This document shows, piece by piece, positions 15,784 to 17,616 of a DNA stretch of 55,149 bases. The notes beneath the pieces were generated by a model. The model did not search any database. It had not been told where the DNA came from and saw only the letters and a program-made list of their open reading frames with translations. How positions within the stretch are numbered: the first letter of the stretch is position 1; the number at the start of each line of letters is the position of its first letter. Source of the stretch: a virus (Duplodnaviria; Heunggongvirae; Uroviricota; Caudoviricetes); IMG/VR virus record IMGVR_UViG_2531839531_000008, one strand, 5' to 3'. Both the position numbers and the translations under genes were made by a program.

Positions 15784-16833
15784 ATGATTAATACTGTAAA
15801 AATATCCAGTTGTGAGTTAATCAACGCTGATTGCCTGGAGTTTATCCAGACCTTACCGGAAAACTCTGTCGATCTGATAGTCACAGACCCGCCATACTTT
15901 AAAGTGAAGCCCGAGGGCTGGGATAACCAGTGGGAGGGCGACGATGATTACCTGAAATGGCTGGACCAGTGTCTGGCGCAGTTCTGGCGGGTACTGAAGC
16001 CTGCCGGAAGTCTTTACCTGTTCTGTGGTCATCGCCTGGCATCTGACACCGAAATCATGATGCGTGAGCGCTTTAATGTGCTGAACCACATTATCTGGGC
16101 GAAGCCGTCCGGACGCTGGAACGGGTGCAATAAGGAAAGTCTGCGGGCGTATTTTCCGGCAACAGAGCGCATTCTGTTTGCAGAACATTATCAGGGACCG
16201 TATCGCCCGAAAGATGATGGCTATGTGGAGCAGGGGCGCGAGCTAAAACAGCACGTCATGGCCCCGCTGATTTCTTACTTTCGTGATGCGCGTAAATCAC
16301 TGGGAATAACGTCAAAACAGATAGCGGAAGCCACCGGAAAGAAAAACATGGCTTCGCACTGGTTTGGTGCCAGTCAGTGGCAGTTACCGAACGAGGGTGA
16401 TTACAATAAATTGCAGGCGTTGTTTGCGCGTGTTGCGGCAGAAAAACATCAGCGCGGGGAACTGGAAAAGCCACACCACCAGCTGGTCAGCACATACAGT
16501 GAGCTGAACCGGCAGTATACGGAACTGCTGAGTGAATATAAAAATTTGCGGCGGTATTTCGGTGTGACGGCGCAGGTTCCGTACACCGATGTCTGGACGC
16601 ATAAACCGGTGCAGTACTATCCAGGGAAACATCCGTGCGAAAAACCGGCAGAAATGCTGCAGCAGATAATCAACGCGAGCAGTCGTCCGGGAGACCTGGT
16701 TGCAGATTTTTTTATGGGTTCAGGTTCAACGGTAAAAGCGGCGATGGCACTGGGGCGTTGTGCGATTGGTGTTGAGCTGGAGACCGGACGTTTTGAACAG
16801 ACAGTCAGGGAAGTTCAGGATTTAATCGTTTGA
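15784..16833 (+). CDS. orphan DNA methyltransferase (N6-adenine/N4-cytosine, DPPY motif)
   Basis: 349 aa; motif IV DPPY near N-terminus, FxGSGST near C-terminus; no adjacent restriction gene. Confidence 0.8.
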   Translation: MINTVKISSCELINADCLEFIQTLPENSVDLIVTDPPYFKVKPEGWDNQWEGDDDYLKWLDQCLAQFWRVLKPAGSLYLFCGHRLASDTEIMMRERFNVLNHIIWAKPSGRWNGCNKESLRAYFPATERILFAEHYQGPYRPKDDGYVEQGRELKQHVMAPLISYFRDARKSLGITSKQIAEATGKKNMASHWFGASQWQLPNEGDYNKLQALFARVAAEKHQRGELEKPHHQLVSTYSELNRQYTELLSEYKNLRRYFGVTAQVPYTDVWTHKPVQYYPGKHPCEKPAEMLQQIINASSRPGDLVADFFMGSGSTVKAAMALGRCAIGVELETGRFEQTVREVQDLIV

Positions 16834-16882
16834 AACGGATGAGATTGCAGAATTAATTACGCACCATTATTATTCTGCTCCC

Positions 16883-16958
16883 GGCCCTTTAGCTCAGTGG
16901 TGAGAGCGAGCGACTCATAATCGCCAGGTCGCTGGTTCAAATCCAGCAAGGGCCACCA
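16883..16958 (+). tRNA. ileZ: tRNA-Ile2 (anticodon CAU) or Met
   Basis: cloverleaf with 7-bp acceptor stem GGCCCTT/AAGGGCC, loop CTCATAA, encoded CCA; near-identical to E. coli ileX as recalled. Confidence 0.85.
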
Positions 16959-16965
16959 TCACATA

Positions 16966-17042
16966 CCGCCATTAGCTCATCAGGATAGAGCGCCAGCCTT
17001 CGAAGCTGGTTGCGCGGGGTTCGAGTCCTCGATGGCGGTCCA
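16966..17042 (+). tRNA. argN: tRNA-Arg (anticodon UCG)
   Basis: acceptor stem CCGCCAT/ATGGCGG, anticodon loop CTTCGAA, encoded CCA. Confidence 0.75.
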
Positions 17043-17055
17043 TTATCTGTACCCT

Positions 17056-17132
17056 GCGTTGTTAGCTCAGCCGGACAGAGCAATTGCCTTCTAAGCAATC
17101 GGTCACTGGTTCGAATCCAGTACAACGCGCCA
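17056..17132 (+). tRNA. argO: tRNA-Arg (anticodon UCU)
   Basis: acceptor stem GCGTTGT/ACAACGC, anticodon loop CTTCTAA, encoded CCA. Confidence 0.8.
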
Positions 17133-17146
17133 CGCTTATTTTTCCA

Positions 17147-17169
17147 GGCTCGCTTCGGCGGGCCTTTTT
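17147..17169 (+). terminator. terminator after tRNA cluster
   Basis: ggctcgc-ttcg-gcgggcc hairpin followed by TTTTT. Confidence 0.45.
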
Positions 17170-17616
17170 CATATCCGCGCCCGTTATGAAGCGCCACCGC
17201 GTTCTGCTAATGCTGAAGCCCTTCGTCAGCTGACTGATGTTGCAGATACTGATGATACTGTGAATGTGCTGTGTCTGTGTCTGGATATCGCTGACCAGGA
17301 CGGTATCGGTCAGGAAGAAGAAGCGCAACTGAAGAAAATTGCGCAGGCGCTGCAGTTGCCGCTGGAGCAGTACCTGTGAAAAGTGCGCGCCTTGTGCTGG
17401 CTGTCATCCTGTTGTTTCTGGTAGTGATGGTGGATTTCACCGGACGACTGATGTCAGTGCTGGCAGATGGTGTGCTGGTGGCGATGGCGCTGATCGTGCT
17501 CCGGCCTTTACTGCGTAAATCTGAATAACATCACACAAAAGGCATCTGCGGGTGCCTTTGACGGGGTGTTTTTTTACGGGTCGCTGGTGGCCCTTTTTTT
17601 ATTTTCAGGAGGAAGT

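Follow-up and report, generated by a model that had tools for sequence, protein, structure and literature searches.

Shiga toxin (Stx)-converting phages such as phiP27 (NC_003356) and Stx2a_1447 (AP012536) carry, in this order, a small open reading frame (ORF), a DNA methylase gene of 349–352 amino acids (aa), the tRNA genes ileZ-(argN)-argO, a terminator, a cargo gene and the lysis genes. Phage P1 (NC_005856) carries the genes tciA, tciB and tciC, whose function has been annotated by homology only. Here we describe a locus that combines elements of these systems in IMG/VR record IMGVR_UViG_2531839531_000008, a stretch of 55,149 nucleotides (nt) that was analysed over its full length (the window). 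The locus has the same succession of elements as phiP27 and Stx2a_1447 and very probably represents the accessory section of a late operon, in a toxin-free lambdoid prophage of Escherichia coli that is related to phiP27. Its cargo is a gene pair of which the first member, tciA, a gene of the TerB family, retains only its 3' half. From sequence comparison, this gene appears to have been halved when 354 bp were lost between two direct repeats of 11 bp.

An earlier note, made from the sequence alone, had described an orphan methylase gene and a tRNA trio between Q and the lysis genes, followed by a gene remnant instead of toxin genes. All of the features that it listed were found where it had placed them or within 2 nt. 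Judged by sequence, the layout is the standard methylase and three-tRNA block seen upstream of stx in Stx phages. This architecture, a textbook Stx-phage late region minus the toxin, is already known; all of its components fall into described families, and public genomes, including that of enterotoxigenic E. coli (ETEC) H10407, already contain the exact allele. New here are the recognition of tciA in the remnant, the apparent repeat-bounded deletion of 354 bp, a RefSeq gene call that we regard as a misannotation, and a relic of tciB in phiP27. The value lies in cleaner annotation and in a minor detail of evolutionary history, and the current view of Stx-phage architecture is unchanged. All features below lie on the plus strand unless stated otherwise.

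The tciA remnant and its origin

Read upstream from position 17379, where it ends, the frame of the remnant meets no stop codon until a TAA that lies within the third tRNA gene, in its anticodon loop (94 codons). No ATG, GTG or TTG occurs in this frame before a GTG at 17260, which agrees with the startless frame described previously and not with a complete gene. The in-frame bases 17140–17170 are tRNA spacer and terminator sequence rather than tciA. The tciA part occupies 17171..17379 and comprises the last 69 codons (73–141) only, as identified by alignment with intact alleles, by 75% identity to residues 73–141 of P1 TciA, and by a match to PHROG 632 ('tellurite resistance', 1.5e-22) that covers profile positions 73–143 only. 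Codons 1–72, with the N-terminal MFGIFKKK start of the full-length protein (~141 aa), are absent; the window holds a fragment of a member of the P1 TciA family, not a member. The remnant is considered untranslated because it has no start codon, ribosome-binding site or leader.

The remnant alone gave no Pfam hit. An intact relative scored 32.7 bits for Pfam TerB (PF05099; cutoff 24.4), on residues 11–57 only, and this stretch is deleted in the window. The TerB likeness that the earlier note had seen by eye was thus right as to ancestry, whereas the part of the domain that can be recognised has been lost.

In E. coli TW10590 (NZ_CP035850), an intact 141-aa 'TerB family protein' is encoded at the same position, followed by a 50-aa DUF3927 protein. 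The best hits among complete E. coli genomes covered the query either as a whole or in two pieces around ~354 extra bases, and alignment showed that the window and strains IrN and 203740 are all short of exactly 354 bp relative to TW10590. The 11-bp sequence ATATCCGCGCC occurs twice in TW10590 (positions 3372 and 3726 of sequence L001, 354 bp apart), where it is the sole 11-bp repeat in that 600-bp segment. It occurs once in the window, at 17171..17181, as the deletion junction and the last bases common to Stx phages. The missing 354 bp correspond to ~135 nt of 5' leader plus tciA codons 1–72, and the retained part begins within codon 73. To the left of the junction, TW10590 is 100% identical to the window over 15300–17181. 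The earlier note had proposed a remnant of a displaced cargo gene; a true TerB-family remnant is indeed present, but it was apparently cut by the 354-bp deletion and not displaced by incoming cargo.

The opposite polarity, in which the short form came first and other strains gained the 354 bp by insertion, could appeal to the 11-bp direct repeat that flanks the extra segment like a target-site duplication. The segment, however, contains no mobile-element features and comprises the conserved leader together with codons 1–72 of a gene whose product is full length (140–143 aa) across phage families, including P1, lambdoid phages and Schitoviridae. This homology effectively refutes an insertion, which we regard as practically untenable.

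Illegitimate recombination between phages could also have produced the junction, by joining a methylase-tRNA module ending in ATATCCGCGCC to tciA from its internal copy of the 11-mer onward. In Stx2a, Stx2e and tciAB phages, conservation ahead of the cargo ends with the 11-mer or with a variant of it that has one or two mismatches; the left flank is 100% identical to TW10590, whereas the first 99 nt of the remnant differ from it at 12 positions; and the remnant allele is found behind different Q genes. On the other hand, a parent with both repeats in cis exists, the loss of one repeat unit recreates the junction exactly, and two further sequences (L132 and L133) combine the junction with a TW10590-type right side, as expected of a simple deletion product. 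Both routes lead to the same end product, a truncated pseudogene. We consider this origin unlikely, while giving it some weight, and favour the deletion between direct repeats.

To assess how widely the junction occurs, we searched complete E. coli genomes. A junction-spanning query was covered to at least 80% in 22 of 5426 genomes, including ETEC H10407, TW10828, ETEC-2264, E-numbered human isolates and a few environmental strains, with ETEC in the majority; the deleted 354 bp were present at ≥80% coverage in 164 of the 5426. The exact junction gave no hits in GTDB species-representative genomes. The same junction also stands on a second tciA background, as L132 and L133 are identical to TW10590 to its right. 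The deletion may have arisen more than once, as would be expected of slippage between direct repeats, or once with later recombination. In L132 (GCA_012831155.1, 2470–2560), a C-to-T change in the argO acceptor stem creates an in-frame ATG, from which gene callers predict an ORF of 84 aa that begins in the tRNA and extends into the tciA remnant. The loop of the terminator is changed there as well.

Several observations weigh against this account of the remnant. The first 99 nt of the remnant differ by at least 9 mismatches from every intact allele sampled, so that a direct ancestor was not found. The occurrence of the junction on two backgrounds fits one deletion with later recombination as well as two independent deletions. 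Finally, RefSeq carries a 93-aa 'TerB family protein' (WP_050490208.1) on the identical allele in IrN and 203740.

This last record raises the question of whether the short frame is a complete and functional small TerB-family gene with an unusual start. The protein was called by the annotation pipeline PGAP, the frame is open over 94 codons and the allele is present in 22 genomes. Its annotated start, however, is an ATC equivalent to window position 17098, inside the tRNA-Arg gene (ORF 17098–17379), and there is neither an alternative start codon before 17260 nor a Shine-Dalgarno sequence there. The first ~25 codons are tRNA and terminator sequence, the TerB residues that Pfam recognises are missing, and H10407-type records with the same junction call the stretch 'hypothetical protein' only. 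We rejected the 93-aa gene and regard the call as a homology-driven artefact over a pseudogene; a functional small gene seems very improbable.

The remnant contains (CTGTGT)2CTG at 17269–17283, encoding LCLCL. Public fragments P0002, P0006 and P0005 carry 3, 4 and 5 CL units, respectively, indicating that the hexanucleotide repeat expands in frame elsewhere. A protein search with the remnant returned fragments of 39–119 aa only and no full-length TciA. PHROG 9865 (74 aa) was considered as the same deletion allele and rejected, as database proteins of that size (P0002, P0005 and P0006) start at an internal Met70 of TciA, carry (CL)n expansions and so form a separate group of truncated gene calls.

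tciB and the TciA/TciB family

Immediately downstream lies tciB (17376..17528), which encodes an apparently intact 50-aa two-helix membrane protein with two hydrophobic stretches and DFTGR between them. It matched Pfam DUF3927 (PF13064; 1.1e-14, 54.6 bits against a cutoff of 25) and PHROG 1470 ('TciB-like', 1.7e-23), and its product is 49% identical to P1 TciB. The GTG start overlaps the tciA stop as GTGA, with GGAG 8 nt upstream. The coupled two-helix hydrophobic ORF with a GTG start had been recognised beforehand, although its end had been put at 17526, 2 nt short of the end of the stop codon. With its own GGAG and GTG, tciB may still be translated. Our best guess is that TciA and TciB would form a membrane-associated TerB-type complex, which in the allele of the window is most likely inactivated.

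A tblastn search with intact TciA retrieved 98 phage records. One of them is P1, whose TciA shares 85% identity over 141 aa with the intact relative of the remnant. Besides P1, the tciA-tciB pair is carried by the lambdoid phages JLK-2012 and LMessi between Q and the lysis genes (in LMessi between Q and the holin gene) and by a lytic Schitoviridae Salmonella phage; like the leader of intact tciA, it is widespread in temperate and lytic phages. As in the window, tciB directly follows tciA in P1, and a tRNA-Ile2(CAT) gene adjoins the P1 operon too. The window, unlike P1, lacks tciA codons 1–72 and tciC, and the P1 genes lie in the C1-controlled ban region, whereas those of the window would belong to a Q-dependent late operon. 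The intact alleles of TW10590 and of the stx-less O55:H7 phage JLK-2012 share with the window the succession of Q, tRNAs, terminator, tciA, tciB and lysis genes, but keep the ~135-nt leader and a TciA of 141–143 aa, both of which the window has lost.

No significant match to intact TciA was found among PDB sequences (best E 0.04, an unrelated PNPase), and NCBIfam has no model for TciA or TciB. In the literature, we found no functional study of tciA-tciB or DUF3927; the papers found for tciA and tciB were all surveys of P1-like plasmids. PADLOC matched only methyltransferase models in the region, and neither TciA nor TciB matched any defence protein.

The truncated allele might itself be under selection, if TciB alone or a C-terminal TciA fragment starting from the GTG at 17260 were useful upstream of the holins. 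The intact tciB with its own GGAG would fit such a role, as would the spread of the allele over 22 genomes, prophages with differing Q modules and two tciA backgrounds. Elsewhere, however, TciB always occurs with a full TciA, and decay of tciA is common: truncated tciA ORFs were found at ~12% of leader-bearing loci, and nearly half of one subgroup of P1-like plasmids has lost the tciABC operon (PMC9603915). Moreover, the 22 genomes come for the most part from ETEC isolates that are close relatives of one another, so that persistence may equal clonal descent. We judge selection on the short form improbable.

The leader of intact tciA (L001, 3372–3508, ~135 nt), which is deleted in the window and would sit between 17181 and 17182, shows 83–98% identity between phages that share only 41% identity in TciA. 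Leader matches were found in at least 120 IMG/VR contigs, and among the matches listed tciA always follows. Across 60 unique leaders, a long-range helix GGGGUGAGC/GCUCACCC has two fully compensatory pairs, although the leaders fall into only ~3 haplotype classes, which implies few independent compensatory events. A CCUUU in the leader is predicted to pair with the Shine-Dalgarno sequence AAAGG, and an invariant CCACAGAG/CUCUGUGG pairing crosses the GGGGUGAGC/GCUCACCC helix, suggesting either a pseudoknot or alternative folding. For a single sequence, the z-score is -1.8, and Rfam has no family for this leader. The tciA leader is conserved and probably structured.

The record PP818812 (L007, 3338–5216), 'Actinobacillus phage vB_Apl-pPE4', contains a tciA-tciB-holin-holin-endolysin segment ~90% identical in nucleotide sequence to the E. 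coli prophage. It was deposited as a phage of Actinobacillus pleuropneumoniae; its TciA is 96.5% identical to that of E. coli, and the host assignment may need checking.

The cargo slot in Stx phages and in the window

Megablast analysis of 15300–18700 against phage genomes yielded 305 records, mostly of Stx-converting phages. Those with Stx2a, Stx2c and Stx2d matched 15301–17181 and then stopped, whereas phiP27 (Stx2e) matched 15301–17181 and again 17434–18648, both at ~90%. The borders of the shared module at 15301 and 17181 are the same in comparisons with phiP27 and with over 200 records of Stx phages. This 1.9-kb module comprises a small ORF, the methylase gene, the tRNA genes and a terminator hairpin, and stxA starts ~90 nt past the point of lost homology in phiP27 and the Stx2 phages. 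The Stx-phage-like layout noted previously is borne out by this comparison, in which ~90% identity to phiP27 and Stx2a phages ends where stx starts.

Toxin genes had been reported as absent, and tblastn with StxA and StxB of Stx2e and Stx2a indeed gave no match below E = 1 in the 55-kb window. The 484 nt between argO and the start of the holin gene are filled by tciA'-tciB, so the window lacks the stxA and stxB genes of a Stx-converting phage. Directly 3' of the module is a variable cargo slot, which holds stx2e in phiP27, stx2a in Stx2a phages and tciA-tciB in the window.

In phiP27, ~31 codons (~95 nt) of the 3' end of tciB, with a 1-nt deletion and frameshift, remain directly 3' of stxB2e (L003, 4895–4990), where they are overlapped by an annotated minus-strand 'hypothetical protein L27'. 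Apart from this frameshifted fragment, which is all of tciB that it keeps, phiP27 differs from the window in a degenerate argN. Because phiP27 keeps a tciB 3' fragment after stxB, stx2e appears to have displaced tciAB; the arrangement suggests, as the most likely history, that the stx2e cassette took the place of tciA and of the first ~19 tciB codons in a tciAB-carrying ancestor. The simplest reading of the window is a toxin-free relative of the Stx2e phage with the older cargo, itself secondarily damaged. The slot of the Shiga toxin genes in phiP27 would then have held tciAB first, and a toxin-free form circulates in ETEC-type E. coli.

It is conceivable that ATATCCGCGCC is a recurrent breakpoint for the exchange of cargo (stx2a, stx2e and tciAB) beyond chance microhomology, that its second copy renders some tciA alleles deletion-prone, which would explain the junction on two backgrounds, and that the truncation has an effect on lysis. 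For the last of these, tciB without its partner and without the structured leader would be a late-only 50-aa membrane protein beside the holins and might affect lysis timing. Taken together, we rate these proposals as speculative and of low probability.

The orphan adenine methylase and its companion ORF

The gene at 15784..16833 encodes an orphan N6-adenine DNA methyltransferase of 349 aa, which is of the beta class and belongs to the M.EcoGI/M.EcoGII family, with Pfam N6_N4_Mtase (2.3e-44) matching residues 29–340 and the beta-class motif order (DPPY at residue 35, FMGSG, i.e., FxGxG, at residue 310). No nuclease or restriction partner gene lies beside it, the neighbours being a 65-aa ORF and the tRNA genes, in line with the orphan status proposed before. 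NCBIfam methylase models matched below cutoff only.

The protein is identical to M.EcoGII at 317 of 350 positions (91%), a count that may be off by a few residues as the M.EcoGII sequence was taken from machine-read text of a supplement (PMC11551740). It is 90% identical to the methylase of phage 1720a-02, which has been named as very similar to M.EcoGII (PMC5778455). M.EcoGI and M.EcoGII, from prophages of E. coli O104:H4 (PMC5778455), likewise have 349 aa, the beta-class order, a prophage location and no partner nuclease; the methylase of the window differs by ~30 substitutions, several of them in the central region. M.EcoGII methylates adenine in any sequence context and is silent in the lysogen; its constitutive expression harms the cell, and the authors suggest that it is switched on at prophage induction (PMC5778455). 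Carried over by homology, non-specific adenine methylation would be expected here as well, and a methylase made late would methylate adenines of progeny DNA with little sequence preference and so shield it against restriction by the next host.

The small companion ORF (15436..15633) encodes a 65-aa winged-helix-like protein (PHROG 331, 1.4e-37; weak, sub-threshold Pfam TrmB match, 0.0026). It always accompanies the methylase gene and is annotated in phiP27 and in E. coli relatives. NCBIfam has no model for this ORF or for Q.

The tRNA genes and codon usage

ARAGORN identified exactly three tRNA genes in the window, all between the methylase gene and the remnant: an ileZ-type tRNA with a CAT anticodon (tRNA-Ile2, 16883..16958; Rfam 72.5 bits), an argN-type tRNA-Arg (TCG, 16966..17042; 56 bits) and an argO-type tRNA-Arg (TCT, reading AGA/AGG, 17056..17132; 70.1 bits). 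The Rfam gathering score for tRNA is 29 bits, and both programs accepted the trio suggested by the earlier note. The genes are identical to ileZ, argN and argO of Stx2a_1447 at 76/76, 72/77 and 77/77 positions, and their order directly 3' of the methylase gene (CAT, TCG, TCT) and their spacing are the same as in that phage. In phiP27, argN is degenerate (L003, ~3165–3250) and only ileZ and argO are annotated, while 16966–17042 of the window is intact.

ARAGORN labels the CAT tRNA as Met from its anticodon, whereas RefSeq and phage records label it as Ile; it is similar to P1 trnI, a tRNA-Ile2 according to its record (NC_005856). As an ileZ-type tRNA, it would read AUA as Ile after lysidine modification, and the trio would supplement decoding of AUA, CGA/CGG and AGA/AGG. 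In a crude ORF set, ATA, AGA and AGG amounted to 16.2, 8.8 and 6.0 per thousand codons of the early genes; the corresponding values for the late genes were 8.7, 5.5 and 5.5. The E. coli averages are around 4, 2 and 1 per thousand, and AUA, CGA/CGG and AGA/AGG appear two- to four-fold commoner in the prophage. An enrichment of AUA, AGA and AGG in late genes, for which the earlier note had proposed a codon-usage check, was not found, as the early genes hold more of these codons.

Late transcription and lysis genes

Upstream of the module lies a Q-like late antiterminator gene of the DUF1133 type (14569..15123; DUF1133 2.1e-101, Phage_antitermQ 2.6e-06, PHROG 753 'anti-termination protein Q-like' 9e-79). 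This Q differs in type from that of phiP27. Downstream of Q, a putative short pR' leader RNA (15238..15314) would end in a tR'-like intrinsic terminator, formed by a hairpin with a U-run at 15283–15313 (-18.2 kcal/mol, z = -6.2). TTGTAT at 15201–15206 and TTCAAT at 15224–15229 make up a candidate pR' promoter. IsrK and AgrB (RF02891) are short RNAs of enterobacterial prophages; 15238–15314 scored 21.6 bits against Rfam IsrK and 15209–15314 scored 27.1 bits against AgrB, both under the gathering scores.

The terminator scan found a further hairpin at 15620. An intrinsic-terminator-like hairpin with a T-run (17146..17170) closes the tRNA cluster; its fold (17146–17165) has -14.6 kcal/mol (z = -5.0), and alignment shows it kept in Stx phages and 5' of intact tciA. 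Two terminator-like hairpins (17538..17600), found by terminator scan and folding and common to phiP27, lie between tciB and the lysis genes. Rfam matched no family in 17130–17630.

The lysis cassette (17617..18654) consists of two holin genes (17617–18009, Pfam Phage_holin_8, 3e-23; 17999–18274, Phage_holin_3_7, 5e-21) and an M15 endolysin gene (18277–18654, Peptidase_M15_4, 7.5e-13), with ~90% nucleotide identity to L28–L30 of phiP27. With the Q-like gene upstream and these genes downstream, the order Q, methylase, tRNA trio and lysis genes given by the earlier note was recovered. After prophage induction, a Q-modified RNA polymerase would pass all of the hairpins, as in lambda and Stx phages, and the methylase, the tRNAs, tciB and the lysis proteins would be late products.

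Several points count against this expression model and the roles proposed within it. It rests on likeness to lambdoid and Stx phages, and a promoter scan found no consensus sigma-70 or pR' site on the plus strand. The rare-codon excess is stronger in early genes, which weakens a simple account in which the tRNAs serve late genes. The specificity of the methylase is taken from a relative with 91% identity, and substitutions in the central target-recognition region could make it different. In addition, the prophage may not complete a lytic cycle unless a 10.6-kb element in its terminase gene, described below, excises.

Other features of the prophage

A 10.6-kb insertion at 21726–32311 interrupts the gene for the large terminase subunit downstream of the part that encodes the ATPase domain (flanking gene parts 20727–21725 and 32312–33428). 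The insertion encodes a tyrosine integrase (21884–23122), a Bro-N protein (23397–23978), a D5-type primase-helicase (26046–27860) and a 638-aa ORF, and a 13-bp core, CTGGATG(G/T)AGGGT, is present at both ends. Its segment 31352–31873 is 76% identical to the prophage region 5' of DUF1441 and the terminase gene, possibly a cos region. The terminase-integrase junction was detected in 84 of the 5426 complete E. coli genomes. The insertion looks like a cos-type phage-inducible chromosomal island or a P4-like satellite in terL of a potential helper.

A block with 36% G+C at 10153–12104 contains a second Q-like gene (10153–10689; Phage_antitermQ 4e-30), with 14 ATA among its 178 codons, and, on the opposite strand, genes for a DUF6731 protein (11190–12104) and a 159-aa ORF. 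This block may be an imported moron or a defence islet.

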